64,000 nt of DNA from Fidelibacterota bacterium (GCA_014381725.1 JACNLC010000085.1:12569-76568); one strand, 5' to 3'; shown: positions 6,203-47,624, counted from the first letter of the stretch. Numbers and translations: made by a program. Notes: generated from the sequence alone by a model not told the origin.

Positions 6203-6222
6203 ATAAAAGAAAGGTAAGTAAA

Positions 6223-7215: not shown

Positions 7216-7318
7216 ATAATGGTCTCTAAATATAAACCATTAAGATGGTTAATAATCTATTATTTTTCTGTTAACCCACGGCTTAGGTCGTGGGTTACGG
7301 ATCCAGCAGAAATTATCG

Positions 7319-7376: not shown

Positions 7377-7382
7377 TAAGGT

Positions 7383-7832: not shown

Positions 7833-7859
7833 CTGTTATTAAATTAAGATAATATTTAT

Positions 7860-9004: not shown

Positions 9005-9012
9005 AATAAATC

Positions 9013-10883: not shown

Positions 10884-11107
10884 AGATTTCTTTCTTTGTT
10901 ATAACCACGAATATGCTAAAATTTCTTCGTGAAATTAACTGTTTATTTTACAAAATATGTACTTGATATCTGGTTTACATTCCCAACATTATCGCGAGCT
11001 TCAATTGTTAATAAATGAGTTCCAATTGGAAGGTTGTCATCAAATTCATAACTAACCAAATTTCGGTATGAAACATATTCGTGTATAATCGTTTGACCAT
11101 CAACTGT
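10876..11107. repeat. direct repeat copy A (duplicate of M23 gene 3' end, spacer and rhomboid start)
   Basis: Aligns base-for-base with 11507-11738 at an offset of 631 nt. I count 8 substitutions and no indels. Confidence 0.9.
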
Positions 11108-11230
11108 CCTGGCAACATCACTATAATAATTATTTCGAGCAGAATTTTGCTCAAACCCGCAATTGACGCAATATTTAGCGTCAATATTAAATTCAATTCC
11201 GCAGTGTTTAATACAGAGGGTTTCTTTGAA
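10943..11230 (-). pseudogene. start-less zinc-ribbon / Ig-like-tail fragment (chimeric remnant)
   Basis: Own translation of the open frame, 95 codons: FKETLCIKHCGIEFNIDAKYCVNCGFEQNSARNNYYSDVARTVDGQTIIHEYVSYRNLVSYEFDDNLPIGTHLLTIEARDNVGNVNQISSTYFVK*. It is bounded upstream by TAA, and no ATG/GTG/TTG precedes the CxxC..CxxC motif. The C-terminal ~55 aa are almost identical to the M23 protein tail. The track ORF 11008..11196 is in another frame. Confidence 0.45.
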
Positions 11231-11506: not shown

Positions 11507-11738
11507 ATAAACATAGATTTCTTTCTTTGTTATGACCACGAATATGCTAAAATTGCTTCGTGAAATTAACTGTTTATTTTACAAAAAATGTACTTGATAT
11601 TTGGTTGACATTCCCAACATTATCGCGAGCTTCAATTGTTAATAAATGAGTTCCAATTGGAAGGTTGTCATCAAATTCATAACTAACCAAATTTCTGTAT
11701 GAAACATATTCGTGTATAATCTTTTGACCATCAACCGT
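11507..11738. repeat. direct repeat copy B (genuine 3' end of the M23 peptidase gene plus downstream spacer)
   Basis: See copy A; same sequence at a 631-nt offset. Confidence 0.9.
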
Positions 11739-14348
11739 TATAGTAACATTATTTTCACCATCAATTCCAGAAAATGAATCTTTTACAAAAAATGACAGCG
11801 AAGATAAATTATTATAGGTCCCGCCAATGTCTGGAATTAAATCAATAAGTTCAGGTTTAGTATCTTCAGAAATTACGGCAAATATTTCACCTGATAATGC
11901 GGTTGTTGAGTAGAAATTATCAAGTTTTTCAGTTTCCATATAATACCATTTCTCTTTTTTTGTATCGTAGTAAAATATTCCAGCATTTTGGGATTCACTT
12001 ACCAATCCTTGGACATTAAATGTAATTTTAATTTTATCAGAATAAGGTATCAAATCCGGACCAATAAAGTATGGACCTAACACCATTTTCCCTTCTGGCA
12101 ATGTTGGTGATGATACTTTGTTTATCCAAACCAAAGTTGTATCAGAAAATGTATCTCCATCGCCTGAAACTGTTATTTTATCATCATCAAACGATAATTC
12201 AAACGAACGATTTGGAATGGTTAATTGACTATATAGGTTTGATTTGTAAACAAGGTCTGGTTCACCTAGATATCTTATAGAATATTCTGTAAACTCGGAT
12301 AATTCAGCAGGAGAAAATACTTGCGATGACAATACATTTTTACTACTTCTCTCTAATGGGAATTTTCGTAAAGTGTCAAAATTATCCAATAATAAATCAG
12401 CATTTCTACCACTAAATTCATGCTCGTGAAATTCCAAAATAATTCCGTGTTGATAGTGCATAATTTTTGGAGTCGTCTTCGGATTCAAAACTTGATTAGA
12501 GGAAATAGAAAAATACTGAGATTTACTTTGTAAACCGGAAGAAGCGTTTCCTATAACCTCAACAACTTTATATAAATGATTTGAGTTTTCAAAAGTTAAA
12601 ATACCATTTTCTATTGTAGTGATTATTGGATTCAATGTGTGATTATCATCGTATGGAGTAAGAAGAGTGATATTTGTATGTATTGGCTCTTCCGAATAAG
12701 TAGTTACATTAATTTGTTTTCCGCTGGGAGTTAGAGCGAAAGAAACATCCGGAACAGATGACAATGAAATCACTCCTGAAATCGAAACCAAGTTTTGTGA
12801 AAAGTCCCACGCTTCAATAAGAAAACGATGATATCCACTTTCTAAATTAGGTATTTGTCGAGATGCTTCATCAATAAATGACATTTGACTTGGATTCTCT
12901 GAAAACAGACGATAGAATTTCCCTTTGTTTTCTCTACGAAGCATATAATCACGATGATCATAAAACGAACTATTTTCTTCAAAATCAAAAATATTGAACT
13001 GAGTATTATAAATCAATTCATCATCAACAAACAAGTTCATTCCATACAAACCAAAATCAAAAGATTGCTTATCAATTTTATCTTTAATTTGGATTGCTAA
13101 TCCAAAATCACCTTGTACAGAAATTGTATCAGAAATGTGATAATTACTGTCGTTATTTTTTAGAATCTCTACTATTTTCGTTTGCGGAAACCCATCAATC
13201 AAAGTTTGTTTTTCTATTGGAATTATTGCTAAAGATTGTGGAATTGGTAATTTAGTATCAATAATATTTAAATTCGTCAGGAATGGATTTAGTGGATGGT
13301 TACTCTCATCTCGGATTTCAAAATGTAGGTGTGGACCGGAGATTCCACCTGTATCGCCTGTATATCCAATAATTTCTCCTTTCTTAACCGGATATTCATA
13401 TGGCTCAAAGTAGTGGTCAATTGTATAACTATTTTCTTTATTTTGAATAAATTTAGCAATTTGATTAAAAGTCGGTTTAAATGAATCCAAATGTACATAT
13501 ACTGCGATATTCCCATCTTCTAAACGAATGTAAAGAGCTTTCCCGTATCCCTTTGAACTTGTTCGAATTCGTTCTAAATAACCATTTTCAATTGCATAAA
13601 CTTCAAAACCGATTTTACCAAAAGTACGAATGTCTAGTCCAGCGTGAAACCACCTTTCTCGGAATTCGCCAAAAACACCCGTAATATATTCCCCCGAATT
13701 GCATGGCCAAATATATTTATTGAAAAACTGAGGGAGTTCTCTAACGGAATTGTCAATTGTACTTTCTTGTGTTTGAGTAATCTGCTCTGAATTTTCAGCT
13801 AATTTCAATATTTGTTTATCTAATTCTTGGATTCGCTTTTTATAGTTACTTTCAATTGCTCTATACAGTTTGTATCCCTTTATAAACTGATTCTTCATAA
13901 CTTTTACTTGTTTGTAATGAAACTGTTTTTTTAAAGTTTCTTTGGATAGCTCAACCATTTTATATTCATAATTAATCTGAAAATCATCAGACACTTCTAG
14001 CTCAATATTCTCCAAATTATTTACTTTACAAAATTCTTCAATCTGAATTTCATAATTACGGAATTTTTGAGCGTAAACAGTTTTTAACTTCTTAGTTTTA
14101 GACATTATCTCTTCGGCAACTACATTGTAAAATTCAGCTTTCTCAGCTTCATCTTCAATTGTTACAGCTATATCTTCATAGTTTAGAAGTTTTTTCACAG
14201 AACTTTTCATTTCTTGAGTTAAATATGGACTAGAATATAAAATTTGTGCAAAAATAATACACAATAATAACATAATCCACTTCAATAAATTAAGTTTTGT
14301 TGCAGGTGTATTTTTAAATTTTGGTGTATTTAACATAATATTTTTCAA
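11574..14348 (-). CDS. M23 family metallopeptidase (LytM-type) with N-terminal coiled coil and C-terminal Ig-like domains
   Basis: N-terminal membrane anchor. M23 motifs WFHAGLDI, GYTGDTGGISGPHLHFEIRD. C-terminal Ig-like pattern ITVDGQKI...LPIGTHLLTIEARDNVGN. Confidence 0.8.
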   Translation of the reverse strand: MKNIMLNTPKFKNTPATKLNLLKWIMLLLCIIFAQILYSSPYLTQEMKSSVKKLLNYEDIAVTIEDEAEKAEFYNVVAEEIMSKTKKLKTVYAQKFRNYEIQIEEFCKVNNLENIELEVSDDFQINYEYKMVELSKETLKKQFHYKQVKVMKNQFIKGYKLYRAIESNYKKRIQELDKQILKLAENSEQITQTQESTIDNSVRELPQFFNKYIWPCNSGEYITGVFGEFRERWFHAGLDIRTFGKIGFEVYAIENGYLERIRTSSKGYGKALYIRLEDGNIAVYVHLDSFKPTFNQIAKFIQNKENSYTIDHYFEPYEYPVKKGEIIGYTGDTGGISGPHLHFEIRDESNHPLNPFLTNLNIIDTKLPIPQSLAIIPIEKQTLIDGFPQTKIVEILKNNDSNYHISDTISVQGDFGLAIQIKDKIDKQSFDFGLYGMNLFVDDELIYNTQFNIFDFEENSSFYDHRDYMLRRENKGKFYRLFSENPSQMSFIDEASRQIPNLESGYHRFLIEAWDFSQNLVSISGVISLSSVPDVSFALTPSGKQINVTTYSEEPIHTNITLLTPYDDNHTLNPIITTIENGILTFENSNHLYKVVEVIGNASSGLQSKSQYFSISSNQVLNPKTTPKIMHYQHGIILEFHEHEFSGRNADLLLDNFDTLRKFPLERSSKNVLSSQVFSPAELSEFTEYSIRYLGEPDLVYKSNLYSQLTIPNRSFELSFDDDKITVSGDGDTFSDTTLVWINKVSSPTLPEGKMVLGPYFIGPDLIPYSDKIKITFNVQGLVSESQNAGIFYYDTKKEKWYYMETEKLDNFYSTTALSGEIFAVISEDTKPELIDLIPDIGGTYNNLSSLSFFVKDSFSGIDGENNVTITVDGQKIIHEYVSYRNLVSYEFDDNLPIGTHLLTIEARDNVGNVNQISSTFFVK

Positions 14349-23161: not shown

Positions 23162-25315
23162 TTGAAGAAAAATAAATTAATTCTATGGTTAGTAATGTTA
23201 ACTGGAGTTGTTTTCGCAAACTCAGTCAGGGAAAATGTAATTCTATTTTGCTTGAATCAGAATTCAGAATTATTATCCATTTCAAAAACTGAAGATGGAT
23301 TTTCAGTCAATAACAGCGAACTTAATGATTATTTTAAATCTATAAAAGCTACTGATTTAGAGCAGTGGATACCATTTGCAACAGAGGATGATCACGACGG
23401 AGATATCTACTTAAACAGAATTTATCGTTTATATTTGCCTGAAAATAGAACCAAATCACTTTCTCAAATCCTGGAAGAAGTTGCTTCTTTTGAAATTATA
23501 CATTCATCTGAAAAGGAATATATCAGAAAACCATATTATACACCAAACGATCCTCGATACAGCCAGCAATGGTTTTTGCAACAAGTAAACGCTAATTATG
23601 CGTGGAATTTTTGGGATATTGATGGAGGAGACAATCCCGGTAACCAAAATGTATTGCTCGCTTCAGTTGATACTGGTGTAGATTGGGACCACACTGATCT
23701 AAGAAATAATATATGGCAAAATCTCAATGAAGATGCAGATGGTGATGGCCATACAATTGAATATTCTAATGGAACTTGGATACTCGATCCTGGCGATTTG
23801 AATGGAATTGACGACGACGATTGGGATGATAGCCCCACAACTTTTGTGGATGACTTAATCGGTTGGGATGTTGCTGGTTGGAGTGGAGTTGGAGATAATA
23901 ATCCTCAACCAAAAGAAGGAGTATCCAATTGGAGTACTTGGGCTCACGGTACACATGTAGCCGGACTTTTAGCTTCATCAACAGATAATAATACAGGAAT
24001 TGCTTCAGTTGCGTTTGACTGTAGTATAATGTCTGTTAAAGTATCCAGGGGAAATCAATCAGGTGAACCTTATATAACTGATGGATTCTCTGGTATTTTG
24101 TATGCCGCTAAAGCTGGATTTAACACAGGATCATTTGCAATAATCAATAATAGTTGGGGTGGTGGTGGTTTTAACTCATACGAACAAGCAAATATAAATG
24201 TTGCACATGACACATACAATGCAATCATTTTTGCTGCAGGTGGTAATGGTTCAGATTCTTGGCCTTATGGAGAAGAATATACCGCACATTATCCATCAAG
24301 CTATGAAAATGTGATTGCCGTTGCTCCGTTGGGAACAAACGATAATTGGAACCATTGGGGAACCTACCACGAGACAATTGATTTATCATCTCCCGGAGAA
24401 AATATTCAAAGTACAATTATTGGAAATAACTATACTTCTTGGGATGGTTCATCTATGGCAACACCAATTGCCGCAAGTTGTGTTGGTCTGCTAAAATCTA
24501 AATATCCTGATTGGTCTAATATCCAACTAGAAACAATGATTGTTGCAACAGCTGATCCGGTAATTTATAACCAAAATTCTGAATCATACCTTCAAGGGAG
24601 ATTAGGAACTGGAAGAGTTGATATTTTGAAAGCTATTGAAACTGGACTTTTCCCAAAGTTGGAGTTTATTGCTAATGACATTATCCCTGTAACTGGGCAA
24701 GACAACGATGTTAATCCAGGTGAAATAGCAGAATTACGAACTATATTGGTCAATAATGAAGATTGGGGAACTGCTGTTGGTGCTATTGGATTTTTATCAT
24801 CTGAATCAGAATTTGTGACCATCATAAACAATGAAGCAAGTTTTGGAACAGTATCTCCTGGAGATGCGACTTTGAATGAAATTGATCCATTTGTCATTGA
24901 ATTTTCAACTGATACTCCAACCGGAAATGTATCGTTTGATCTTGTACTTACTTCAAACGAAGATGATTATGTTGTTTATACTGACACGCTTACATTTACA
25001 GTTAGAATAATGCCAACTTTGGATAACCTCTCAAGTAATCGCCCAAGCGAATTTTCATTATCTCAAAACTATCCAAATCCATTCAATCCAGTAACAGTTA
25101 TTAGTTATCAACTCCCTGTTCCAAGCTCCGTGCTACTTACTATTTATAATCTACAAGGGCAATTTATTGGAGAATTAGTAAGCAATGTTAGCGTACAGGA
25201 AGCTGGCTATCATTCAGTAGTTTGGGATGCATCAAATTATCCAAGTGGAGTGTATTTTGCAAAACTGCAAACGGATAATTTTACACAAACACAAAAATTA
25301 TTATTATTAAAATAG
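23162..25315 (+). CDS. S8 family (subtilisin-like) serine peptidase with T9SS C-terminal sorting domain
   Basis: Signal peptide. Catalytic triad motifs SVDTGVDWDHTDL, HGTHVAGLL, GSSMATPIAA. C-terminal YPNPFNPVTVISY...SGVYFAKLQTDNFTQTQKLLLLK. TTG start follows GAGAGGG. Confidence 0.85.
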   Translation: MKKNKLILWLVMLTGVVFANSVRENVILFCLNQNSELLSISKTEDGFSVNNSELNDYFKSIKATDLEQWIPFATEDDHDGDIYLNRIYRLYLPENRTKSLSQILEEVASFEIIHSSEKEYIRKPYYTPNDPRYSQQWFLQQVNANYAWNFWDIDGGDNPGNQNVLLASVDTGVDWDHTDLRNNIWQNLNEDADGDGHTIEYSNGTWILDPGDLNGIDDDDWDDSPTTFVDDLIGWDVAGWSGVGDNNPQPKEGVSNWSTWAHGTHVAGLLASSTDNNTGIASVAFDCSIMSVKVSRGNQSGEPYITDGFSGILYAAKAGFNTGSFAIINNSWGGGGFNSYEQANINVAHDTYNAIIFAAGGNGSDSWPYGEEYTAHYPSSYENVIAVAPLGTNDNWNHWGTYHETIDLSSPGENIQSTIIGNNYTSWDGSSMATPIAASCVGLLKSKYPDWSNIQLETMIVATADPVIYNQNSESYLQGRLGTGRVDILKAIETGLFPKLEFIANDIIPVTGQDNDVNPGEIAELRTILVNNEDWGTAVGAIGFLSSESEFVTIINNEASFGTVSPGDATLNEIDPFVIEFSTDTPTGNVSFDLVLTSNEDDYVVYTDTLTFTVRIMPTLDNLSSNRPSEFSLSQNYPNPFNPVTVISYQLPVPSSVLLTIYNLQGQFIGELVSNVSVQEAGYHSVVWDASNYPSGVYFAKLQTDNFTQTQKLLLLK

Positions 25316-25323
25316 GAAATTAT

Positions 25324-28323
25324 ATGAAAAAATTATTGTTAGGAATGTTATTAGTAATTGGTTTTTTAGCTGCAGAAACAGTGGATGTTGAACAAGCAAA
25401 AACTGTTGCAGTGAATCTTTTTACCGAACGGAGTGATTTTGACATCGACAAAATCAGTATTCTTGATATTTCCACAGAAACATTCGGAAAGAATAATTTA
25501 TTTTACATTTTCAATATGATACCTGCGGGATTTGTAATTGTATCCGCCGATGATATTGCAACTCCAATTATCGGTTATAGTTTTGAAGGACAATTACAAA
25601 ATGATAAAATTCCCACACAACTTGCAAATAAACTTGAGAAATACAAATCTGAAATTATTGAAGCTATTCAACAAAATATCTTACCAACTGAAAATATTAG
25701 AACTCAATGGGGATATTACATTTCTGACAATGGTTTTATAATCAATAGAAATTTTCGTTCAGTTTCTCCGCTAATCCAAGCTCGATTTGACCAACCAAAT
25801 CCGTGGAATGCAAAATGCCCGGTAGACCAAAGTGGTCCAGGTGGACGCGCACTCGTTGGATGTGTAGCGGTTTCAATGGCTCAAGTAATGCACTATTGGT
25901 CATATCCAGATTATGGTTACGGTTCTCACAATTATTATCATTGGGATTATGGCAATATATCTGCAAATTTTGGTGATACTCATTATGATTGGTCAAATAT
26001 TCCAAATGCACCGGCAACAGATGATACTCAAACAATTTTATTTCATTGCGGAGTTGCCATTGATATGGGATATGGCCCAGACGGCTCAGGAGCATATGTA
26101 GGTTGGGGAAATCCGTCTGCAATGACAGCAATGGATGATCATTTTCTCTTTGATGATGATATCCATTTTGAAGAAAAAGATAATTATTCAGATGCTTCTT
26201 GGAAAGAACTGATGCAAACTGAACTTAACGAAGGTCGCCCAACAGTATATCGTGGTTATGATATTGAAAGTGGTGGTGGTCACGCTTGGAATATTGATGG
26301 TTATCAAAACGATTATTTCCACTGCAATTGGGGGTGGGGTGGATATGCAAATGGTTATTTTTATCTCAATAACTTAACTGGTGGTGGATATAATTTTTCT
26401 GAAGGCCAAGCAGCAATAATGGGAATTATTCCAGAAAGTTTATCAACACCAAATTTAGTACTTACAGAAACAGCTAGTGAAGAAGTAACTGGTGATGGTG
26501 ATGCGGTGATTAATCCAGGAGAAACTGCAAATATCTTTGTTACTTTGAAAAACCTACCACCTTGGCCAAGTGCAGTTGATGTTGAACTGATTTTAGAAAC
26601 ACAAGAAGACGGAGTTACAATTATTAACGATTATATTTCTTTGGCACAAATTGATTCTGCTGAAACTTATACCAATTTAGAATTTCCTTTTATTGCCGAA
26701 TTTTCATCAGATACTCCTCTTGGTGGTTATTCTTTTAAATTGGTTGTATTAACAAATGACCTACAATACACAAAAGAATTTGACTTTGAAGTCAATATTT
26801 CTCTACATCAAGCTGGATTCCCATTTTACACTTCTGAGCAAGTGAAATCTTCTCCCATTGTAATCGATATTGACGATGATGGAGAAAAGGAGATTATCTT
26901 TGCTGATTATACAGGTTTAATTCATAATTTAAATTATAACGGAAATGAAGAGATAAACTGGCCATTTGATACTGGGAATCAGGTTTGGGGTTCTCCGGCA
27001 GTAGCTGATATAGACAATGATGGAGAGCTGGAAATTATAATTGGATCAAAATCGAAACATCTCTTTGTGCTTACTCCTACTGCTGAAATAAAATTGGATT
27101 TTGAAACTGAGATGTATCTTATGGCTACTGCTTCTATCGGAAACATTGATGATGATGATGAACTTGAAATTATATTCCCTGGATTTTCAACTGCAAATGA
27201 AACTTCCAGTATATTCGCAATAAATCTCGATGGTTCAAATGTTCCGGGATTCCCAATAATTGTAAATGAGAAAATTTTGTATGGATTAGCATTAGCCGAT
27301 TTTAATGAAAATGATAAAGTAGATATCGTATGTACAACTGATGCTGGGAATATATTCCTTTTCTACGATAATGGAATAATTGCCGATGGTTTCCCTTTTA
27401 CAGCTGAAGAACAATTTAAAACAGCTCCATCTGTGTTAAAACTAAACGAACAAGATGAATTTGGTTATGATAAAATTATTGTAGCAGGATCAATGGATGA
27501 TAATTTTTATGCGATTAACAGCGATGGAGGACTTCGTTTCTCAGTTGAAACTGATGGTAATATTCAAACTTCAGCAGGATTTGTGGATATCGAAAATATC
27601 GGACCGGTAATCTTTTTCGGCTCAGATGACGGATATCTGTATGCTGTGCAAACAAACGGATTTAATGCTCCGGGTTGGCCTAAATATCTTAATGAAAAAG
27701 TAACTGTATCGCCTGTCTTTGCGGACATTGATGGAGACAATATCCCAGAGGTTGTGTCAGGTAATGATACCGGAGAAATGTATGTTTTCAATCTGAATGG
27801 TTCTCCATTCCAAAATACTCCAATACCGTCAGAATTTTCCTATAAAAGCACTCCTATGATAGTTGATACCGACAATGATGGTGATTTTGAAATTGTAATT
27901 GGCACTACTCACAACTTAACAAATGTGGATATTAAAAATCTGGGAAACGACGGAGCTTATTGGAAAATGGATAGAGGAAATTCGAAAAGAACTGGATTAT
28001 TTGAAAGCACAATGAATGCTAATTTAGAGACAGATATTTCCAATATAATTATTCATAATTTTGAATTGCATACCGCTTACCCTAATCCGTTTAATCCTAC
28101 AACGGTTATTAGTTATAGTGTGCCGGTAGAGACAAACGGCCGTTTGTCTCTACAAATTTACAACATTACTGGTCAGTTGGTAGAAACATTGGTAAACGCG
28201 CAAGTAGAAGCTGGTTATCATACAGTAGTTTGGAATGCAGAAAATCAACCAAGCGGATTATATTTCGTTAGAATGACTGCTGGAGATTTCGTAAGTACAC
28301 AGAAGATGTTGTTGTTGAAATAG
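25324..28323 (+). CDS. C10 family (streptopain-like) cysteine peptidase fused to FG-GAP/VCBS-type repeats and a T9SS C-terminal domain
   Basis: Signal peptide and propeptide-like N-terminus. Catalytic Cys context VGCVAVSMAQVMHYWSYP and His context GGGHAWNIDGYQ. Repeats DIDDDGEKEIIF, ADIDNDGELEIIIG, ADIDGDNIPEVVSG, DTDNDGDFEIVIG. C-terminal YPNPFNPTTVISY...QKMLLLK. Confidence 0.8.
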   Translation: MKKLLLGMLLVIGFLAAETVDVEQAKTVAVNLFTERSDFDIDKISILDISTETFGKNNLFYIFNMIPAGFVIVSADDIATPIIGYSFEGQLQNDKIPTQLANKLEKYKSEIIEAIQQNILPTENIRTQWGYYISDNGFIINRNFRSVSPLIQARFDQPNPWNAKCPVDQSGPGGRALVGCVAVSMAQVMHYWSYPDYGYGSHNYYHWDYGNISANFGDTHYDWSNIPNAPATDDTQTILFHCGVAIDMGYGPDGSGAYVGWGNPSAMTAMDDHFLFDDDIHFEEKDNYSDASWKELMQTELNEGRPTVYRGYDIESGGGHAWNIDGYQNDYFHCNWGWGGYANGYFYLNNLTGGGYNFSEGQAAIMGIIPESLSTPNLVLTETASEEVTGDGDAVINPGETANIFVTLKNLPPWPSAVDVELILETQEDGVTIINDYISLAQIDSAETYTNLEFPFIAEFSSDTPLGGYSFKLVVLTNDLQYTKEFDFEVNISLHQAGFPFYTSEQVKSSPIVIDIDDDGEKEIIFADYTGLIHNLNYNGNEEINWPFDTGNQVWGSPAVADIDNDGELEIIIGSKSKHLFVLTPTAEIKLDFETEMYLMATASIGNIDDDDELEIIFPGFSTANETSSIFAINLDGSNVPGFPIIVNEKILYGLALADFNENDKVDIVCTTDAGNIFLFYDNGIIADGFPFTAEEQFKTAPSVLKLNEQDEFGYDKIIVAGSMDDNFYAINSDGGLRFSVETDGNIQTSAGFVDIENIGPVIFFGSDDGYLYAVQTNGFNAPGWPKYLNEKVTVSPVFADIDGDNIPEVVSGNDTGEMYVFNLNGSPFQNTPIPSEFSYKSTPMIVDTDNDGDFEIVIGTTHNLTNVDIKNLGNDGAYWKMDRGNSKRTGLFESTMNANLETDISNIIIHNFELHTAYPNPFNPTTVISYSVPVETNGRLSLQIYNITGQLVETLVNAQVEAGYHTVVWNAENQPSGLYFVRMTAGDFVSTQKMLLLK
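28125..28239. repeat. near-identical CTD-coding tract, copy 1 (in the C10 gene)
   Basis: 115 nt matching 30432-30546 with 3 mismatches (28132, 28176, 28199) and no indels. Begins at the perfect palindrome GAGACAAACGG|CCGTTTGTCTC (28129-28150). Confidence 0.9.
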
Positions 28324-28382
28324 TAGAAAATAAAAAATAAACAACGAACAGACGAAATAAAGCAAGTTCGTAACTTCGCCTT

Positions 28383-28416
28383 GTCCGCCAATGTTTTTCA
28401 GGTGGGCGTTTTCGTT
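28383..28416 (+). terminator. weak candidate terminator after the C10 gene
   Basis: GTCCGCC (28383-28389) pairs with GGTGGGC (28401-28407), including two G-U wobbles. 11-nt loop, followed by GTTTTCGTT. Confidence 0.3.
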
Positions 28417-28491
28417 ATAAACCTTAAAACAATTGCTTGCTACTAACAAAACTAACAAAGTAAATTTACTTCTCGAAAACACAATTTAATT

Positions 28492-28596
28492 ATGAAAAGT
28501 TTCAAAATTATATTATTATTATTGACCATTTGGTGCGTTTCCGTTTCAGCACAAGAAACTTCTGCACCTATTTTTGTATATCCAACCATAACTTGA
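28492..28596 (+). CDS. 34-aa signal-peptide-only mini-ORF (possible gene remnant or small secreted peptide)
   Basis: Own translation: MKSFKIILLLLTIWCVSVSAQETSAPIFVYPTIT*. Sec-type signal with an SAQ-E cleavage-like site. No obvious SD. Confidence 0.25.
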   Translation: MKSFKIILLLLTIWCVSVSAQETSAPIFVYPTIT

Positions 28597-28617
28597 CAAA
28601 CTTAAAAAGGAGCAAAA

Positions 28618-30630
28618 ATGTTGAATAACAAAATAACAAAACTAATCAGTGCAATCTGTGTAATCTGTGGTTTGGTTAGCGGTTTGCTTTTTGCAACTAC
28701 AATAAACATCCCGGCAGATTACAGCACAATACAAGCCGGCTTAAACTCAGCAAGCGAAGGCGACACCGTGCAAGTCTCTGCAGGTACTTACTACGAAAAC
28801 ATCACTTGGCCTGCTACAAACAGCATACAACTAATTGGTAGCGGTGAAGAGGATTGCATTATTGATGGTGATTCTCTGGCAAGTGTGATACGCTTTACAA
28901 GCAGTAATATTGACACAACCACGCTCATAACTGGATTTTCAATACAAAACGGTTTTGCACAAGGAGATTATCCATATAATCATGGCGGCGGGATTTATTG
29001 CTCTTCTTCCAGTCCGAGTTTGGCGAATGTGACGATTTCTGGTAATTCGGCTGAAGGTGTTGGTGGTGGGATTTATTGCCGTAATTATTCCTGTCCGAGT
29101 TTTTCATCAGAGAATCGCTGTAATATCTATTCCAACACCATATCAAACAGCAGAGGAGCAGGTGCGGATATTTTTGCAAATAATTGTCCTGTCATTGATG
29201 TTATCGTAGATACATTCACGGTGTTGACTCCAACTGAATATCACGCATCACCTTTGGATAATTTCACATTTGATATTTTGAATTCGATTATTCCAGAAGA
29301 AGATCAAGTCAACGCAGACCTTTATGTTTCGCCGGATGGAGATAACAGCAATGATGGATTAACCGCAGAGACTCCGCTTAAAACGATTCAATATGCAACC
29401 AGCATCATTCTTGCAGACAGCACCAATCCGCATACGATTCATCTTGCGAATGGAATTTACAGTCCAAGCACCAACGGTGAGTATTTTCCTGTGGAAGTGA
29501 TAAACTATGTTTCGCTTGTAGGAGAATCTGAAGATGGTGTGATTTTAGATGCAGAAGGTGTTGCCGGAGTGATGAGATGTAGATATGTTACCTCTGCCAC
29601 AATTTCACATCTGACATTGACAAACGGTTCGGCTTCTTCCGGTGGCGGGATTTATTGCCGTGAATCTAGTCCGAGTTTAGCGAATGTGACGATAAGTGGC
29701 AATTCGGCTTCTGAATATGGTGGAGGGATTTATTGCGAAGAATCCAGTCCGAGTTTGGCGAATGTAACGATAAGTAATAATTCGGCTTCTGAATATGGTG
29801 GCGGGGTTTTTTGCTATAATAATTCCAGCCCTACTTTTGTGAATGTGACGATTAGTAATAATTCGGCTTCTTCTAATGGTGGCGGGATGTATTTGAATAA
29901 TTCCAGTCCGAGTTTGGTTGATGTGACCATAACGGCTAATTATGCTTCTTTTGGTGGCGGAATTTTTTGCTGGGACAATTCCAGCCCGAGTTTGGTTAAT
30001 TGTATTTTGTGGAATGATGCACCACAGGAGGTTTATTTTAATGTATATTCTGACCCAAATTCAATTATGATTGCATATTCTGATATTCAAGGTGGCGAAG
30101 CAGGAATTGTAACAAACGATAACGGCACAGTTAATTGGGAAGACGGCAATATAAATTTAGATCCGCTGTTTGTAGATGAAGAAAATGGAGATTTTCATCT
30201 TCAAGAAAGTTCGCCCTGCATAGATGCTGGCACAGCGTTTTTTGTGTTTGAAGGCGATACTTTAGTTGATATGAGCGAAGATGAATATGTTGGCTCAGCA
30301 CCAGATATGGGAGCGTTTGAGTATGGAGAAATTGCAGGAATTGAGGATGATTACGAATTATTAATAACGAATTACGAGTTAATGAGAGCATACCCAAATC
30401 CATTTAATCCGAGTACAACAATTAGCTATGCGGTAGAGTCAAACGGCCGTTTGTCTCTACAAATTTACAACATTACTGGTCAATTGGTAGAAACATTGGT
30501 AAACGAGCAAGTAGAAGCTGGTTATCATACAGTAGTTTGGAATGCAAATAATCAGCCGAGTGGAATTTATTTTGCTGTTCTGAGTATTGGTGGATTTTCA
30601 GAGACACAAAAACTACTTCTCTTGAAGTAA
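28618..30630 (+). CDS. right-handed parallel beta-helix (PbH1) repeat protein with T9SS C-terminal domain
   Basis: AAGGAG SD and signal anchor. Repeated coils GGGIYC(x)SSPSLANVTISGNSA. C-terminal YPNPFNPSTTISY...QKLLLLK. Confidence 0.7.
   Translation: MLNNKITKLISAICVICGLVSGLLFATTINIPADYSTIQAGLNSASEGDTVQVSAGTYYENITWPATNSIQLIGSGEEDCIIDGDSLASVIRFTSSNIDTTTLITGFSIQNGFAQGDYPYNHGGGIYCSSSSPSLANVTISGNSAEGVGGGIYCRNYSCPSFSSENRCNIYSNTISNSRGAGADIFANNCPVIDVIVDTFTVLTPTEYHASPLDNFTFDILNSIIPEEDQVNADLYVSPDGDNSNDGLTAETPLKTIQYATSIILADSTNPHTIHLANGIYSPSTNGEYFPVEVINYVSLVGESEDGVILDAEGVAGVMRCRYVTSATISHLTLTNGSASSGGGIYCRESSPSLANVTISGNSASEYGGGIYCEESSPSLANVTISNNSASEYGGGVFCYNNSSPTFVNVTISNNSASSNGGGMYLNNSSPSLVDVTITANYASFGGGIFCWDNSSPSLVNCILWNDAPQEVYFNVYSDPNSIMIAYSDIQGGEAGIVTNDNGTVNWEDGNINLDPLFVDEENGDFHLQESSPCIDAGTAFFVFEGDTLVDMSEDEYVGSAPDMGAFEYGEIAGIEDDYELLITNYELMRAYPNPFNPSTTISYAVESNGRLSLQIYNITGQLVETLVNEQVEAGYHTVVWNANNQPSGIYFAVLSIGGFSETQKLLLLK
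29641..30018. repeat. coding tandem repeat, ~78-nt period x ~5 (beta-helix coils)
   Basis: GGTGG(C/A)GGG unit starts at 29641, 29719, 29797, 29878 and 29953 (spacings 78, 78, 81, 75 nt). An earlier pair lies at ~28984-29100. Confidence 0.85.
30432..30546. repeat. near-identical CTD-coding tract, copy 2 (in the PbH1 gene)
   Basis: Matches 28125-28239 at an offset of 2307 nt. The palindrome has one mismatch here (GAGTCAAACGGCCGTTTGTCTC, 30436-30457). Confidence 0.9.
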
Positions 30631-30687
30631 ATTATTTAAAATAGTTTTTCATAAATAGTTTCATAAATTAACTACCGAGTTAATAGT

Positions 30688-32898
30688 ATGGAAATCATAA
30701 AAAAGACTTTTCGAATTGATGGGATGCACTGTGCAGGTTGTGTTGCAAATGTAGAGAAAACACTTAATTCTGTAAATGGCATTATCGATGCATCCGCAAA
30801 CCTTACATTGGAAAATGTTTCAATAGAATATTCTGATAAAAACGCTATCAATTCTGCAGTATCTGCTATTGAGCATATTGGATTTCAACTGATTTTAGAT
30901 AAAAAAGACATACCACCAGCTGAGAAAAAGCAAAAAGAAATTAGTCAATGGAAAACCAAGTTCCTACAAATGGCAGTATTTGGAATTCCCTTACTATTTT
31001 TTGCAATGTGGGAGATGGTTTTTCAAGGAATAGTCTCTAAAAATACATCAATAATTATTCAATTTCCACTTGCAACGGTATTGGTTTTTCTCGGTAGGAA
31101 TTACTATGTAATTGGATTCAAATCATTGCTTAGATTAGTTCCCAATATGGACAGCTTAATAGCTTTGGGAACAAGTGCCGCATATTTATACTCTATTATT
31201 TCTTCAATTAATCTTATTGGAGAATTCGGGATTTCAGGATTTGAAAAACTCTATTTTGAAAGTGCAGGAGTAATCTTATTATTTATAACCTTGGGACGAT
31301 TTCTCGAAGCAAAAGCAAAGGGAAAAACTACAGAAGCACTTTCAAAGTTATTTGAAACCGCTCCAAAAACAGGATGGATTAACAATAATAGTGACTGGAT
31401 TGAAATCCCCGTTGAGGAGATTAAGATTGGCGATACTATAATGGTCAAACCTGGCGGACAAATTCCAGTTGACGGAACCGTTATTGAAGGTTTGTCTTTT
31501 GTTGATGAATCGGCAATTACAGGGGAATCAAATCCTGTGAAAAAAGAGAAGAATGATAAAGTAATCGGTGCAACAATCAATACATCCGGAATGATCATAT
31601 TCGTAGCTGAAAAAGTAGGCAGTGATACAGTATTTTCCAATATTATCAAATTAGTTAAAGAAGCACAATCATCTAAAGCACCAATTCAAACTTTAGCAGA
31701 TAAAATAGCCGGAATTTTTGTTCCAATAGTTTTATTATTAGCAGTTATAAGTTCCGTGGGGTGGTTAGCGTTGGGGCAACCACTTGTATTTTCTCTAAAC
31801 ATTTTTGTATCAGTTTTGATTATTGCTTGTCCTTGTGCTTTAGGTTTGGCTACACCAACAGCTGTAGTGGTTGGAATGGGTTTATCAGCACAAAATGGTA
31901 TTCATTTTAAATCCGCTGAATCTTTGCAATATTTAAGCAAAACTGGTATAGTTGTTTTTGACAAAACCGGGACCCTAACCAAAGGCGAGATAGTAATCAC
32001 AGATATTAAAACATCAATTGACAAAAAAGAATTTTATTCGTTACTATACTCAATAGAAATACCCTCTGAACACCATTTAGGCAAAGCTATTGTCAACCAT
32101 ATTTCCAAAGGTGAAGAATTTGATGAATATTCTGTAAATTCTTTTAAAGCTATATTAGGAAAAGGTGTAAAAGGAATAATTAATAACAGCGAAATTATTG
32201 TTGGGAATTTGACATTTATTAATGAAACAATAAACCAGTTATCGGATGATATTTTAGACTTGGACGATCGACTTAAAAATCAGGGAAAAACAGTAATCCA
32301 CATTGCAAGCAACGATGAATGGCTTGGGCTCGTTGGGTTATCAGATGAAATTAGAATTGAAGCAGAACAGACAATTTATGAGCTCCAAAAAAATGGAGTT
32401 GATTTGTGGATGATTACTGGCGACAATCACAAAACTGCCGAACATGTAGGGAAAACTATAGGAATTAAAAATATACTATCTGAGATTCTGCCAAATGAAA
32501 AATCAACACAAATTACTCAACTTAAAAAAAATGGTAATCTTGTAGCAATGGTGGGAGATGGAATAAATGATGCTCCGGCACTAGCTTCGGCGAATATTGG
32601 AATTGCTTTAAGTTCTGGTACAGATGTAGCAATAGAAACTGCTGATATTGTATTAATGAGATCCGACCTTTCTTTGGTTAAAGGAGCAATGAAAATCAGT
32701 AAAAAAGTTGTTAGTAAAATTAAACAAAATTTGTTTTGGGCATTTATTTATAATGTTGTTGGAATTCCAGTTGCTATGGGAATTTTGTATCCTATAAATG
32801 GTTATTTACTAAATCCAATGATTGCCGGAATTGCAATGGCGTTTTCTTCTGTTAGTGTTGTGAGCAATACATTACTTTTGAAAAGAATGAAGATGTAA
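30688..32898 (+). CDS. copA: copper-translocating P1B-type ATPase
   Basis: N-terminal HMA domain GMHCAGC, CPC metal site (IIACPCALGLATP), DKTGTLT phosphorylation motif and GDGINDAPAL hinge. Confidence 0.9.
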   Translation: MEIIKKTFRIDGMHCAGCVANVEKTLNSVNGIIDASANLTLENVSIEYSDKNAINSAVSAIEHIGFQLILDKKDIPPAEKKQKEISQWKTKFLQMAVFGIPLLFFAMWEMVFQGIVSKNTSIIIQFPLATVLVFLGRNYYVIGFKSLLRLVPNMDSLIALGTSAAYLYSIISSINLIGEFGISGFEKLYFESAGVILLFITLGRFLEAKAKGKTTEALSKLFETAPKTGWINNNSDWIEIPVEEIKIGDTIMVKPGGQIPVDGTVIEGLSFVDESAITGESNPVKKEKNDKVIGATINTSGMIIFVAEKVGSDTVFSNIIKLVKEAQSSKAPIQTLADKIAGIFVPIVLLLAVISSVGWLALGQPLVFSLNIFVSVLIIACPCALGLATPTAVVVGMGLSAQNGIHFKSAESLQYLSKTGIVVFDKTGTLTKGEIVITDIKTSIDKKEFYSLLYSIEIPSEHHLGKAIVNHISKGEEFDEYSVNSFKAILGKGVKGIINNSEIIVGNLTFINETINQLSDDILDLDDRLKNQGKTVIHIASNDEWLGLVGLSDEIRIEAEQTIYELQKNGVDLWMITGDNHKTAEHVGKTIGIKNILSEILPNEKSTQITQLKKNGNLVAMVGDGINDAPALASANIGIALSSGTDVAIETADIVLMRSDLSLVKGAMKISKKVVSKIKQNLFWAFIYNVVGIPVAMGILYPINGYLLNPMIAGIAMAFSSVSVVSNTLLLKRMKM

Positions 32899-44663: not shown

Positions 44664-47534
44664 TTATTTCAATAACAACAATTTTTGTGTTTGTGTAAAA
44701 TTCTCAGATTGCAGTTTTACAAAATAAATCCCACTTGGATAATTTGATGCATTCCAAGTTACTTCGTGATATCCAGCTTCTTTTATACCATTTAGCAAAG
44801 TTTCTATCAATCTACCATTTATATCAAACATTTGTAGAGACACTCGGCCGTTTGTTTCTACCATTGGAACACTATAACCAATAACCGTTTTGGGATTAAA
44901 TGGATTTGGATAAGCATTTAGCAATTGATAATTAACAAATGATAATTGAGAATTATTCTCCAATTGTTCTTCTCCAAAATCGTCCATTACAACTTCAACA
45001 AACTCCTGTGCAGAACTGGTTTCCATAAAATAGAGCGGAAATCCAAGAACGAAGACTTTATTCTCACCAATTGATCTAATTCCGCAGACTTCGTTCTCCC
45101 ACTCGGAATCATCGGAATCAGAATCAAAACGATAAATTGGTTCAGCACCATTCAACGGAACAAATTTATTAACATTTCTTAATTTATAATCCCATTGAGA
45201 CGGAGCTTTTGAAGAATCAACTTCCATATTTGCGAAACCAGTATCCCCAAAAACACCAAAGAAATCTTCTGAAGTATTAAACTCGATATTTGCAATATGT
45301 AAATAATCCTGCAAAAATGCTTCATCTTCATTCGATAATTGTTTCCAAGATGAAAGTAGTAAATTCCCACCCGCATCAATATACTGTTTTAGATTGTATG
45401 TATCACTATCAAGCGGATTGTTGTTGATGTCGTCATTATGCCACACAATTGAAGAATACTTTGCCATTTCGAATAATTCAGGCAGTCCTTGATCGTCTGC
45501 ATCCCAATTTGTGGTTAGATAATTAGATAACAACAAATCGTAAAAGTCGTCAACTTCTTCATCTGTTGGAAATGGATTACTCTGAGAATTATCTTTTGTC
45601 TTATCCACAATTAAAATTCCGTTATCAAATGTAAACTCCACAGGAATCATTGAAATTTCATTTGAGAATTTACTAAAATACTCCAAATTCGTGTCAAGTA
45701 TTGCAACAATTTTATATTGGTATTCTGTTCCTGAAATTACATTTGTGTCATTATAATCGTTTTCAGTAATTGGCTCAGTATTGATTTGTGTCCATCCTTC
45801 TGAATCATATTTTCGATAAACATTAAAACCTTCAATTGTTGGATCAAAATATTCTTCCCACATTAACATAACAGAGCCATCGCGATTACTATTAGCTTCT
45901 TCGATTTCTGGAATTTGCTCCGAAAATCCGTGATCCAATACCCAATTATTTGGGTCCCAATCAATGTTTGGGAATTCTATTTCAGAAAAATATGTGTAAA
46001 TATTTACACCATCTTCACTCCAAACAGAATATTCTACACCACTCATTTCAAACGGAATTGGCATATTAAAAGATGTTGTTTCACTTCCATAAGAAACCAA
46101 AGTAATTTTTATAGAATCTGTCAACTCGGAAGAATATGTTGCATAGTCATAATCCGGACTTCCAATACCATAAATCCACTCTTGGAAAAACCAATTTAGG
46201 TCGCTTCCATAGTGTGATTCAAATACACTTTGTAAATCTTCTGTAACTGCATTTTGGTAGGCATAAATTTCAAGATAATCCTGAAGTGAAGCAAAATATA
46301 TTTCATCTCCCACCACTTTTCGCAACATATGGTTTACCCACGCCCCTTTGTTGTAAATAATTCCGTCAAATATATCCCAAACTCCTATTGTATCAATCGT
46401 GAACACTGATCTCGAATCACCCCATCCAAACTCCATACTATTCATATAGTTGTGATATGAATTTACACCACTCGTATTTTCTACATAGAGTGCCTCGGAA
46501 TATGTTGCAAATCCTTCATTAAGCCATCCGTGTTGCCAATCTCTGCAAGTTACTTTGTCACCAAACCATTGGTGAGCAAGTTCGTGAACCTGCACTATTC
46601 CGCTCGTTGTCGCCGTGGTTACACAAGTCTGATGTTCCATAGCCCAACTACTATTTGTGACTTTAGCAATCGCAAATTTCTCATCGACAAAAGGATATAG
46701 TCCATACAAATCAGAGAAGATCGGAAGTGCCGTTTCAACATCGTGAAATCCTGATGGAACCGTGCCAGTTGTATAATAAATAATAGGCATCGAGTCATTT
46801 TCGGCGTAATGAAAATATTCTATTGTTTCTAAATACGGATAAACATTCACAACAAACAGGTAAGTTGCAATTGGATAATTTTCTAACCAATGGTGAGTTT
46901 TTGTGTCATCGTAATTATTGATTATCTCTTGGAGAACACCGTTTGAAGCAACAATCAAATCATCTGGAACTGTAAGTTTTAAATCAACATAATTTGCTTT
47001 ATCAGATGGATGATCTTTGCAAGGCACCCAATCGGATAATCCGTAAGGACAGTTAAGAGAATAAAACCCTCCACTAGAATATACAATGCCACCTTCCCAC
47101 GCCACGCCCGAACCAGTAGCGCCTGAATATTCAATTGTAATTGATAGAGTATCATTTTCCAAAAAATTACTTTCAAAAAGCAAATTAATACGATTGTTAA
47201 AATGATTTTCGGATAAAACTGATATTTGATTATCATCTACAAACACTGACACATTTTCAATATCTAGATGGTCTTTAGCGTCAAGAATTATTTCATGTGT
47301 CTCGTTTTTTATGGATACATCTATAATTACTGAACCATCAACTTGTTGAGTTTCTGGATCAATTTGGATATCTAGCACATAGCTTAGTACATCATAATCA
47401 TTTTGTTCTGGTAATAAATCTCGATGAAATTCAATTGGATTTGAATTTTGATTCTTGATTTGACATTCTTTTGTTGGAATGTTAGATGAATACAGAAATG
47501 TAATAATTGACAATATAATTATAATTTTCTGCAT
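44664..47534 (-). CDS. M1 family aminopeptidase (aminopeptidase N-like) with C-terminal extension and T9SS sorting domain
   Basis: HELAHQWFGD and WLNEGFATY motifs. Signal peptide starts at MQKIIIILSIITF (ATG 47534, AGGAG upstream). C-terminal YPNPFNPKTVIGY...SGIYFVKLQSENFTQTQKLLLLK. Confidence 0.8.
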   Translation of the reverse strand: MQKIIIILSIITFLYSSNIPTKECQIKNQNSNPIEFHRDLLPEQNDYDVLSYVLDIQIDPETQQVDGSVIIDVSIKNETHEIILDAKDHLDIENVSVFVDDNQISVLSENHFNNRINLLFESNFLENDTLSITIEYSGATGSGVAWEGGIVYSSGGFYSLNCPYGLSDWVPCKDHPSDKANYVDLKLTVPDDLIVASNGVLQEIINNYDDTKTHHWLENYPIATYLFVVNVYPYLETIEYFHYAENDSMPIIYYTTGTVPSGFHDVETALPIFSDLYGLYPFVDEKFAIAKVTNSSWAMEHQTCVTTATTSGIVQVHELAHQWFGDKVTCRDWQHGWLNEGFATYSEALYVENTSGVNSYHNYMNSMEFGWGDSRSVFTIDTIGVWDIFDGIIYNKGAWVNHMLRKVVGDEIYFASLQDYLEIYAYQNAVTEDLQSVFESHYGSDLNWFFQEWIYGIGSPDYDYATYSSELTDSIKITLVSYGSETTSFNMPIPFEMSGVEYSVWSEDGVNIYTYFSEIEFPNIDWDPNNWVLDHGFSEQIPEIEEANSNRDGSVMLMWEEYFDPTIEGFNVYRKYDSEGWTQINTEPITENDYNDTNVISGTEYQYKIVAILDTNLEYFSKFSNEISMIPVEFTFDNGILIVDKTKDNSQSNPFPTDEEVDDFYDLLLSNYLTTNWDADDQGLPELFEMAKYSSIVWHNDDINNNPLDSDTYNLKQYIDAGGNLLLSSWKQLSNEDEAFLQDYLHIANIEFNTSEDFFGVFGDTGFANMEVDSSKAPSQWDYKLRNVNKFVPLNGAEPIYRFDSDSDDSEWENEVCGIRSIGENKVFVLGFPLYFMETSSAQEFVEVVMDDFGEEQLENNSQLSFVNYQLLNAYPNPFNPKTVIGYSVPMVETNGRVSLQMFDINGRLIETLLNGIKEAGYHEVTWNASNYPSGIYFVKLQSENFTQTQKLLLLK

Positions 47535-47624
47535 AGATATTCTCCTTATTTTCAAATCTAACTTAATTGAGTTGCAAAAACACAGCAACAATAACACAAA
47601 ATATTATGCAAGAAAATTACTTAT

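Follow-up and report, generated by a model that had tools for sequence, protein, structure and literature searches.

In-frame double-foot REP palindromes and probable gene conversion in the T9SS sorting domains of an uncultured marine Neomarinimicrobiota bacterium

REPINs of Pseudomonas and E. coli are intergenic doublets, present in tens to hundreds of copies per genome together with a flanked, single-copy RAYT gene. Rickettsia palindromic elements (RPEs), of about 100-150 nt, lie in frame in ORFs, to which they add a peptide segment. The double-foot REPs, which go with subclass 2.4 of TnpAREP/RAYT (RAYT group 4), are palindromes bearing a 5' GT[AG]G and a 3' C[TC]AC, and in-frame REPs have been described inside the RAYT/TnpAREP genes themselves (Quentin, Siguier, Chandler and Fichant 2018, PMC6006769). 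Intragenic REPs are palindromic repeats that are translated within apparently functional proteins (Di Nocera et al. 2013, PMC3733652). Among paralogous genes for secreted proteins, conversion and domain shuffling are known from the gingipain/haemagglutinin adhesin modules of Porphyromonas gingivalis (PMC5266723).

We analysed a 64,000-nt stretch of DNA (hereafter the window) from an uncultured marine Neomarinimicrobiota bacterium, in which two of these known processes are probably superimposed, namely an in-frame double-foot REP and gene conversion between the C-terminal sorting domains (CTDs) of T9SS cargo genes; we estimate the probability of this reading at about 0.7. Both are known kinds of event, so that the locus would be a clean example for which no new mechanism is needed.

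Four proteins of the window match the T9SS CTD profile (PF18962 Por_Secre_tail / TIGR04183) with 36.7-42.5 bits for a cutoff of 27, and all four matches stop 3-4 residues short of the stop codon, i.e. at the extreme C-terminus. All four domains are of type A. On the + strand, an S8 protease gene (23162-25315, CTD 25070..25315) is followed by a C10 peptidase gene (25324-28323, CTD 28078..28323, Por_Secre_tail 37.6 bits at residues 919-995) and by the gene of a DUF1565/Chlam_PMP repeat protein, PbH1 (28618-30630, CTD 30391..30630, 37.9 bits at residues 592-666). The fourth, on the - strand, is an M1 aminopeptidase gene (44664-47597, CTD 44664..44912, 42.5 bits), whose product is named 'T9SS type A sorting domain-containing protein' by NCBI. 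A preliminary description of this DNA had recognised the C10, PbH1 and M1 domains and had missed that of the S8 protease, which has no REP and a loop of canonical length. The AlphaFold2 model of the C10 CTD (pLDDT 90, pTM 0.80) shows seven strands and no helix, that is an all-beta sandwich, in which residues 25-30 form a loop and residues 31-37 a strand.

The CTDs of C10 and PbH1 are direct repeats, 2.3 kb apart. Over 115 nt, positions 28125-28239 align without gaps to positions 30432-30546 with three differences (28132 A/T, 28176 G/A and 28199 C/A), and the identity reaches one base more in the 5' direction, to 28124/30431. The tract of 115/116 nt thus occupies 28124..28239 (+) in C10, from the REP to the end of the EAGYH..VW.A block, and 30431..30546 (+) in PbH1. 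Its flanks, in codon alignment, are about 60% identical (5' flank 42/69, 3' flank 47/81). The count of differences, the absence of indels and the diverged flanks are as first described; the 5' indel, given then as 3 nt, measures 6 nt, i.e. two codons, with TAT AGT GTG CCG GTA in C10 and TAT GCG GTA in PbH1. Differences number 3/114 in the tract compared to 61/150 in the flanks (Fisher p = 2e-14), and an identity run as long as the tract was obtained in none of 100,000 permutations (p < 1e-5). Where both genes encode the same amino acid, the codons are identical in 35/36 cases in the tract and in 12/32 cases in the flanks (Fisher p = 7e-8). We also compared C10 with the gene at the syntenic position in a sister species, its true ortholog (L170; 76% identical to C10 at the nt level over the whole gene). 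On the 3' side of the palindrome described below, C10 matches PbH1 at 84/86 positions (98%) compared to 58/86 (67%) for the L170 ortholog. The tract is read here as a recent interlocus gene conversion and not as ordinary paralogy, because synonymous sites are identical within it and diverged outside. A recent conversion or exchange between the CTDs had been proposed at the outset, and the synonymous identity, the paralogs being closer than the orthologs and the mosaic structure of the domains all speak for it.

Considered together with their relatives, the four CTDs are mosaics with different junctions. The S8 and M1 domains are 84-88% identical over their 3' 90-120 nt only (88% in the last 90 nt), which would mark a second, older conversion, and the C10 and M1 domains are closest in their 5' part. 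A third mosaic partner was found on a metagenome contig, L083, in an unrelated S8-like gene. Its CTD has a PbH1-like 5' part (66/73), the common middle (81/86) and a C10-like 3' part (74/83), and it still matches C10 at 88/94 positions downstream of the stop codon. In the window, this corresponds to the 3' part of the C10 CTD and 108 nt beyond the stop (28240..28431, +), which are 89-94% identical to the tail of L083.

In this reading, the 115/116-nt tract would have passed recently and non-reciprocally between the CTDs of C10 and PbH1, presumably by RecA-type recombination and probably from a CTD of the PbH1/L083 type into C10. The CTD-coding 3' ends are alike enough for homologous recombination, which gives rise to mosaics. 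The ends of the tract would fall where the homology between diverged CTDs starts and stops, on the 5' side at the REP, an identity island directly preceded by the 6-nt indel, and on the 3' side where the EAGYH..VW.A block, kept in all four CTDs, comes to its end. As with the P. gingivalis modules, homologous modules would be exchanged among T9SS cargo genes, with mosaics and with paralogs more alike than orthologs, whereas the module is here the CTD sorting signal of about 80 residues and the tracts measure about 90-120 nt. The sorting domains of this uncultured marine phylum would then evolve in concert, short tracts being copied between cargo genes, and CTD sequences would therefore be poor markers of gene history. 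Gene content varies as well at a CTD-CTD junction, at least in the case of PbH1, and CTDs may serve as portable homology for the shuffling of secreted enzymes.

Alternatively, the two near-identical tracts could stem from a reciprocal event that duplicated its crossover region, either an insertion of PbH1 with its CTD into the C10 CTD through homologous recombination or an unequal crossing-over. In L170, the C10 ortholog is followed by the ATPase gene with no PbH1 gene in between, and the alignment of the L170 contig runs in the C10 CTD as far as 28233 and starts again in the PbH1 CTD at 30454; the L083 domain, with a PbH1-type 5' part joined to a C10-type 3' part and downstream sequence, is what such an event could leave. 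Nevertheless, the chimeric pattern expected in the 3' part of the L170 CTD is not visible, this part being no closer to PbH1 (0.60) than to C10 (0.56), identities that are also uninformative on which 3' part is ancestral at the C10-ATPase junction, and a deletion of PbH1 between two direct CTD repeats in the sister lineage fits the synteny equally well. A reciprocal event is thus unlikely, and it differs from gene conversion only in the form of the homologous recombination.

The conversion tract begins at the palindrome GTAGAGACAAACGGCCGTTTGTCTCTAC (28126..28153), which is perfect, lies in frame in the C10 CTD and encodes VETNGRLSL. It had been described as a perfect palindrome of 22 nt (28129-28150); the perfect pairing stands, and the length is 28 nt (14+14). 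The copy in the PbH1 CTD (30433..30460) encodes VESNGRLSL and carries a single mismatch (A to T at 30439). The copy in the M1 CTD (44834..44861, coding strand -) is degenerate and encodes VETNGRVSL; its three mismatches to the C10 copy are not compensated, and 11/14 positions pair (8/11 in the 22-nt core). For both copies, the pairing is the one initially reported. Besides the C10 element, no palindrome of the window exceeds 16 nt, and 200 shuffles of the window never gave one above 24 nt (12+12). The C10 element folds, as RNA and DNA alike, into a 12-bp stem with a GGCC loop, with z = -4.1 for the 90-nt RNA around it, a strong local hairpin of the kind that the preliminary description had suggested looking for by mRNA folding, and with -11 kcal/mol and z = -5.4 for the DNA hairpin. 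The three occurrences of CGGCCG in the window are all within the REP element; as a restriction-site signal this count is uninformative, since 1-2 are expected from base composition.

The palindrome, which had not been recognised as a REP in the preliminary description, belongs by its sequence to the very large double-foot REP family, whose partners are HUH tyrosine transposases of subclass 2.4 in Bacteroidota and their relatives. It reads GTAG...CTAC, in agreement with the feet defined in PMC6006769, and it is short (20-40 nt) and stem-loop-forming, as REPs are. The C10 28-mer is identical to the copies in L004, L009, L083 and L020. In a genome scan, exact or near-exact copies were found in unrelated Bacteroidota, namely in Saprospiraceae (L020, L025), Chitinophagaceae (L022), a Fluviicola (L041) and Flavobacteriia (L015). 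In L041, where the exact variant of the 28-mer co-occurs with the dominant variant of the family, two REP variants are located between convergent genes and one of them is flanked by A8 and T8 runs. Metagenome contigs scanned with the pattern GTARAGAC-NNN-CGGCCG-NNN-GTCTYTAC contained at least 131 copies with ten different inner triplet pairs, and among the metagenome matches listed these free triplets are complementary in all copies but one. Over 21 distinct family sequences, four stem pairs vary on both sides, and the covariation score is 0.29 compared to 0.11 for shuffled sequences, none of 500 shuffles having reached 0.29. The C10 28-mer itself matches the dominant family sequence at 22/28 positions, the six differences forming three compensatory pairs. 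A RAYT-type gene was present on at least 18 of 120 metagenome loci among the matches listed, mostly with the REP in frame, and these genes carry a YIxNNP-type feature, the hallmark of subclass 2.4 and double-foot REPs (PMC6006769). In-frame copies were also found in further T9SS CTDs, confirmed by Pfam, in L077, L088, L091, L020 and three genes of L121. An odd lone palindrome is thereby tied to a very widespread REP family, and the loops of T9SS CTDs are added to the sites of in-frame REP translation, with at least seven further Bacteroidota genes and several Neomarinimicrobiota CTDs.

In the source genome, the 64-kb window and its flanks of about 40 kb (L162, L165) contain no REP copy besides those of the C10, PbH1 and M1 CTDs, all intragenic and at homologous CTD positions. 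A genome-wide enrichment of the palindrome, raised in the preliminary description, is thus not seen in the ~100 kb scanned. Over the same ~100 kb, an HMM built from 8 RAYT proteins detected no RAYT gene, and the contig L004, from a related species, showed only a weak Y1_Tnp-like gene of a different type. The exact core of the palindrome was not found in viral contigs, and a literature search for the exact 28-mer or its peptides gave nothing relevant. The element shares with the double-foot REPs of subclass 2.4 (PMC6006769) the perfect palindrome and the feet, and some of the contigs with identical or near-identical copies have a RAYT gene too, whereas in these ~100 kb it is neither repetitive nor extragenic and has no RAYT gene nearby. 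With the REPIN/RAYT systems it has in common the GTAG-headed hairpin and the HUH-Y1 enzyme family, and the intergenic doublets, the high copy number and the flanked RAYT gene are all absent from the window.

In the type A CTD, the REP is located at the beta1-beta2 turn, where in the model the turn is formed by VETNG and strand 2 starts with RLSL. This placement of VETxGRxSL on a beta-turn and a strand start may be the reason why a REP is tolerated there. Compared to canonical CTD loops, such as VPKNGTVSLIVYN, which resemble VETNGRLSLQIYN, the REP-bearing loop is 0-3 residues longer, hence the element would have replaced loop codons. The element resembles the intragenic REPs (Di Nocera et al. 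2013, PMC3733652) and also the RPEs in being translated at a site, a loop or linker, where the protein tolerates it. In contrast to the RPEs, the 28 nt replace a native beta-turn with little or no change of length, and the host is a secretion-signal domain; a recurrent use of T9SS CTD loops by palindromes was not found in the REP/RPE literature searched.

Considering that ~100 kb hold just three CTD copies and no RAYT gene, the REP looks in this genome like a relic lodged in coding sequence, which the CTDs carry along as they spread, and since the three copies are at the same position in paralogous CTDs, they would owe their spread to the paralogy and conversion of the CTDs rather than to transposition. 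The original event would be the in-frame capture of a REP by a CTD. In this Neomarinimicrobiota lineage, the element would then act as CTD coding sequence rather than as a dispersed repeat, moving along when CTDs duplicate or convert each other and decaying where it is not refreshed, as in the M1 copy and the sister-species orthologs. The hairpin probably has no present-day function. However, the perfect 28-mer is kept at 28/28 positions in C10, L083, L004 and L009 while nearby synonymous sites differ, and between L004 and C10 it lies in a 38-nt island of 100% identity with 61-63% on either side. Such conservation is not obviously expected of a pure relic and needs either a very recent homogenisation or some constraint. 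In the sister-species orthologs, the outer 7-8 nt 'feet' are kept and the centre is unrelated but of the same length, which a uniform neutral decay does not predict. The 28-mer is perfect in some lineages and reduced to its feet in others.

A role of the palindrome in the exchange had been raised as a speculation. The palindrome would then be an active initiator of recombination, through a RAYT-type nick at the GTAG foot or through breakage or stalling at the extruded hairpin, followed by repair from a paralogous CTD, so that tracts begin at the palindrome and the element promotes the exchange of CTD cassettes. The 5' end of the C10/PbH1 tract does lie at most 3 nt from the 5' end of the palindrome, the L004 identity island ends about 8-10 nt on its 3' side, and in the sister-species orthologs the centre of the element is replaced between kept feet. 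But the 5' end of the C10 tract stands alone among the independent junctions in lying at the palindrome, and there the 6-nt indel, where homology ends, would stop heteroduplex extension anyway. The other junctions are elsewhere, about 55 nt downstream of the equivalent position for S8/M1, S8 having no palindrome, about 86 nt downstream for the 3' junctions of C10/PbH1 and L083/PbH1, and about 88 nt upstream for the start of the L004/L009 identity. Additionally, the window and flanks yielded no RAYT gene, and SbcCD-type cleavage is known only from palindromes far longer than 28 nt. The initiator role is thus quite unlikely, and the early speculation gains no support. A broader form of the idea, in which the hairpin is not inert and has been domesticated as a built-in recombination site for swapping T9SS sorting-signal cassettes, we regard as very doubtful. 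If it were true, a RAYT-type HUH enzyme would recognise the GTAG/CTAC feet, or the hairpin would be prone to breakage, and sequence from other copies would repeatedly take the place of the REP centre and of the CTD sequence next to it; this would account for the start of the tract at the palindrome, the 38-nt island shared by two species and the sister orthologs that retain only the feet.

It is highly improbable that selection maintains the hairpin for some function in the mRNA or DNA of these cargo genes, for example to pause translation, to impede mRNA decay or to bind a protein. The strong local fold in RNA and DNA, the 28/28 conservation despite nearby synonymous divergence and the terminator-like positions of related copies in Bacteroidota would suit such a function. 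Yet the stem mismatches of the PbH1 and M1 copies are uncompensated, and the palindrome is wholly lost in sister-species orthologs whose genes are intact. A protein search using just the CTD gave 120 homologs, of which 119 lack the motif, the one that carries it besides the query being from L004; this also rejects the palindrome as a general feature of T9SS CTDs. As an intrinsic terminator the C10 hairpin was rejected as well, being followed by no T-run and not flagged as such, and no Rfam family matches anywhere in the window.

A chance origin of the palindrome, from the codons used for a conserved peptide, is effectively refuted on sequence grounds, even though part of its sequence would be dictated by the protein given the likeness of the canonical loops, by the 14+14 pairing that shuffles never matched above 12+12, by the recurrence of the exact 28-mer in unrelated genomes and contexts and by the compensatory differences from the dominant family sequence. 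The preliminary description had already judged it unlikely to arise by chance, to which the copies in the CTDs of relatives (L004, L009 and L083) and the huge family now add.

Among the multi-copy loci of the family, a CRISPR repeat was considered and rejected, their spacing being irregular. The dominant family sequence contains inverted GAGACG/CGTCTC sites, and a library or adapter artefact was therefore considered; it was rejected, since independent assemblies (ENA, NCBI, JGI and Logan) contain the copies with unique flanks and in the reading frame of intact genes.

The window holds four genes whose products end in a T9SS type A C-terminal sorting domain (CTD), one more than the three of the preliminary description; the addition is an S8 protease gene (23162-25315), whose CTD has no palindrome. 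The others encode a C10 peptidase (25324-28323), with a perfect palindrome copy, a PbH1 protein with DUF1565/Chlam_PMP repeats (28618-30630), and an M1 aminopeptidase (44664-47597, minus strand), with a copy carrying three mismatches. The C10 and PbH1 domains match Pfam Por_Secre_tail above threshold. Inside these two CTDs, positions 28125-28239 and 30432-30546 align without gaps and with three mismatches (28132, 28176 and 28199), as had been described, with one more identical base on the 5′ side; the indel directly upstream measures 6 nt, not 3 nt. Near-identical window-like contigs are present in independent assemblies.

Where C10 and PbH1 encode the same amino acid, they use one and the same codon in 35 of 36 cases in this tract versus 12 of 32 in the flanks (Fisher p = 7e-8), and they differ at 3/114 nucleotides versus 61/150 (p = 2e-14). 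No run as long as the tract arose in 100,000 permutations. The true orthologs in the sister species are syntenic, with about 75% DNA identity, and 3′ of the palindrome C10 equals PbH1 at 84/86 positions and its own ortholog at 58/86. Paralogs that are closer than orthologs are a classic mark of concerted evolution. These comparisons support gene conversion as the origin of the tract, and the recent event first proposed is borne out by the synonymous codons and by the greater closeness of C10 to PbH1 than to its ortholog.

CTD exchange comprises more than one event, the domains being mosaics with incongruent similarities. The S8 and M1 CTDs share 88% identity confined to the last 90 nt; S8 is probably the recipient, because its ortholog has a different tail, into which sequence has been inserted, and the M1 ortholog resembles both (about 0.70). 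The C10 CTD is closest to that of M1 in its 5′ part. In the metagenome contig L083 (33% GC), an S8-like gene carries a three-part mosaic: PbH1-like in its 5′ part (66/73), the shared tract in the middle (81/86) and C10-like in its 3′ part (74/83), the last likeness running 94 nt beyond the stop codon (88/94). Window positions 28240-28431 cover the last third of the C10 CTD and 108 nt of the non-coding DNA beyond it; they are 89-94% identical to L083 6700-6896, the tail of this unrelated gene. As the likeness spans the CTD end and the downstream DNA, such a module is common to different cargo genes. In the sister-species contig L170 (124-5389, versus window 25324-32898), the C10 ortholog is directly followed by the HMA P-type ATPase gene, with no PbH1 gene in between. 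A CTD-CTD junction is therefore the place where PbH1, as an entire gene, is found in one species and missing from the other; it was either inserted in the window lineage or deleted in the L170 lineage, between direct CTD repeats.

Other repeats were observed in the window. The PbH1 gene contains tandem coding repeats of 78-81 nt (29639-30027; 62-75% identical) that match Chlam_PMP/DUF1565 units. A 264-nt direct repeat, 92% identical, occurs at 10876-11139 and 11507-11770, 631 nt apart; one copy spans the 3′ end of a 924-aa M23-peptidase-like ORF (11574-14348, minus strand) and the second is found in the gap next to the start of a rhomboid gene (10188-10883).

The palindrome of the C10 CTD, GTAGAGACAAACGGCCGTTTGTCTCTAC, is perfect, as the preliminary description had it, and is 28 nt long (28126-28153) instead of 22. 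It is the only palindrome above 16 nt in the window; shuffles never exceeded 24 nt and the 28-mer recurs in other genomes, which upholds the view that chance is an unlikely source. A search across species, each represented by a single genome, with a pattern open to every codon choice for E[TS]NGR.SLQ, found it exactly in two CTDs (L004 and L009) of another Neomarinimicrobiota genome, so relatives' CTDs do carry it, and exactly or with 1-2 mismatches in unrelated Bacteroidota (Saprospiraceae, Chitinophagaceae, Fluviicola, Flavobacteriia). Fluviicola (L041) has two variants in the space separating convergent genes; an A8 run and a T8 run enclose one of them, an arrangement resembling that of a bidirectional terminator. 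A compensated variant, GTAAAGACAAACGGCCGTTTGTCTTTAC, is in frame (VKTNGRLSL) in a 1683-aa non-CTD ORF of Saprospiraceae (L025, 2880-2907).

A metagenome scan with GTARAGAC-NNN-CGGCCG-NNN-GTCTYTAC gave at least 131 copies in at least 120 contigs of 33-65% GC. Among the matches listed, the dominant sequence GTAGAGACGCACGGCCGTGCGTCTCTAC makes up 95 of 131 copies, and in every copy but one the two free inner triplets complement each other, ten different triplet pairs being represented. The covariation score of 21 distinct family sequences was 0.29 versus 0.11 when shuffled (0/500 shuffles as high). The window 28-mer matches the dominant form at 22/28 positions, the remaining six being three compensatory pairs. 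An HUH-Y1 transposase-like gene (MPNH[LI]HA ... [WF]Q ... YIxNNP) was found at at least 18 of 120 loci among the matches listed, and the best NCBIfam match of these genes is 'REP-associated tyrosine transposase', slightly under cutoff. The family at these loci is the exact counterpart of the 'double foot' REPs of TnpAREP subclass 2.4, with 5′ GT[AG]G and 3′ C[TC]AC, which also occur in frame within tnpAREP genes (Quentin et al. 2018, PMC6006769). GTAG-tagged REPs within ORFs were reported earlier (Di Nocera et al. 2013, PMC3733652). The exact 28-mer was not found in the searchable literature. By sequence, the palindrome belongs to this known REP family, and it is built in frame into a T9SS sorting domain; gene conversion and in-frame REPs are known phenomena, and what is new is the example and its host context, not the kind of system. 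GTAGAGACGCACGGCCGTGCGTCTCTAC is identical in contigs spanning 33-65% GC, in many cases forms the tip of a longer locus-specific inverted repeat (e.g. L155 10442-10499, L142 4764-4821) and is often followed by partial tandem copies, ACGGCCGTGCGTCTC (metagenome loci L042-L161).

We found no good evidence that the palindrome drives CTD exchange, a role raised in the preliminary description. The C10 tract does start within 3 nt of it, but this is one independent junction, exactly where the 6-nt indel ends homology; the tract's 3′ end is the close of the EAGYH..VW.A block conserved in all four CTDs, other junctions (e.g. S8/M1 and the 3′ junction of L083/PbH1) lie elsewhere, and L004/L009 identity starts about 88 nt upstream. 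Homologous recombination between diverged repeats should end tracts at identity islands, and since the conserved 28-mer forms one, a tract end there is expected. The palindrome folds into a strong hairpin, as had been suggested; it has no T-tract in the window and no Rfam family match, and the hairpin is dispensable in relatives.

In the window and about 40 kb of flanks the element does not act like a dispersed repeat: beyond the three CTD copies, none occurs there, so that the proposed check for enrichment turned out negative for this stretch. An HMM built from RAYT (REP-associated transposase) proteins had no match in the window. In NIOZ-UU68, a related Neomarinimicrobiota genome, a 201-aa Y1_Tnp-like protein (L004 6661-7263; MPNHLHYIA ... 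YLHENP; Pfam 27.4 bits vs cutoff 23) is encoded 6.5 kb from a REP-bearing CTD.

The three changes of the M1 copy are all uncompensated. At the REP site, GTAGAGAAAAGTCAAGCAGTATCTCTAC stands in the sister-species ortholog of M1 and GTTGAGACCCATCGCAATACTTCTCTAC in that of C10, both of unchanged length, with a non-palindromic centre and only the outer feet kept; more distant orthologs have a canonical loop. The entry of the element into the CTD lineage therefore predates the split of the two species. Some copies have decayed, and the perfect one of C10 is younger than the C10 gene itself; in the simplest reading, conversion from a PbH1/L083-type REP-bearing CTD would have reinstalled it. The 28-mer is identical (28/28) in C10, L083, L004, L009 and one Saprospiraceae gene, and between L004 and C10 it lies within a 38-nt island of perfect identity, with 61-63% on either side. 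Both this perfect 28-mer and the survival of feet alone in the sister species can be explained by protein-level constraint on residues of the strand, combined with recent homogenisation; a process specific to REPs that replaces the sequence between the GTAG and CTAC feet is improbable.

Metagenome REPs in long open frames are read, among the matches listed, as VETxGRxSL (49) or RDxRPxVST (14), and the third frame holds TAG. Seven further genes have an in-frame REP in or adjoining a T9SS CTD (L077, L088, L091, L020 and three in L121; Pfam-confirmed), and that of L091 occupies the window's position, directly before the strand with the conserved 'D..G' motif. The L121 genes (3115-9564) are tandem paralogous cargo genes with a REP in the same CTD loop, between low-complexity runs (QQQQ, HHHH). 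When the C10 CTD is modelled with AlphaFold2 (pLDDT 90), P25-G30 (PVETNG) form the beta1-beta2 loop and R31-Y37 (RLSLQIY) strand 2, a placement by which the element would encode a turn and half a strand. Among 120 CTD homologs in public data, a single further one, from L004, carries the motif, and the remainder have a canonical loop of almost equal length, such as VPKNGTVSLIVYN. The element took the place of loop codons, without adding 9-10 codons. Insertions of 10-20 residues in the beta1-beta2 loop of three homologs (P0057, P0102 and P0117; e.g. SRAPAREEGRDPASGGE) might originate in other palindromic repeat families.
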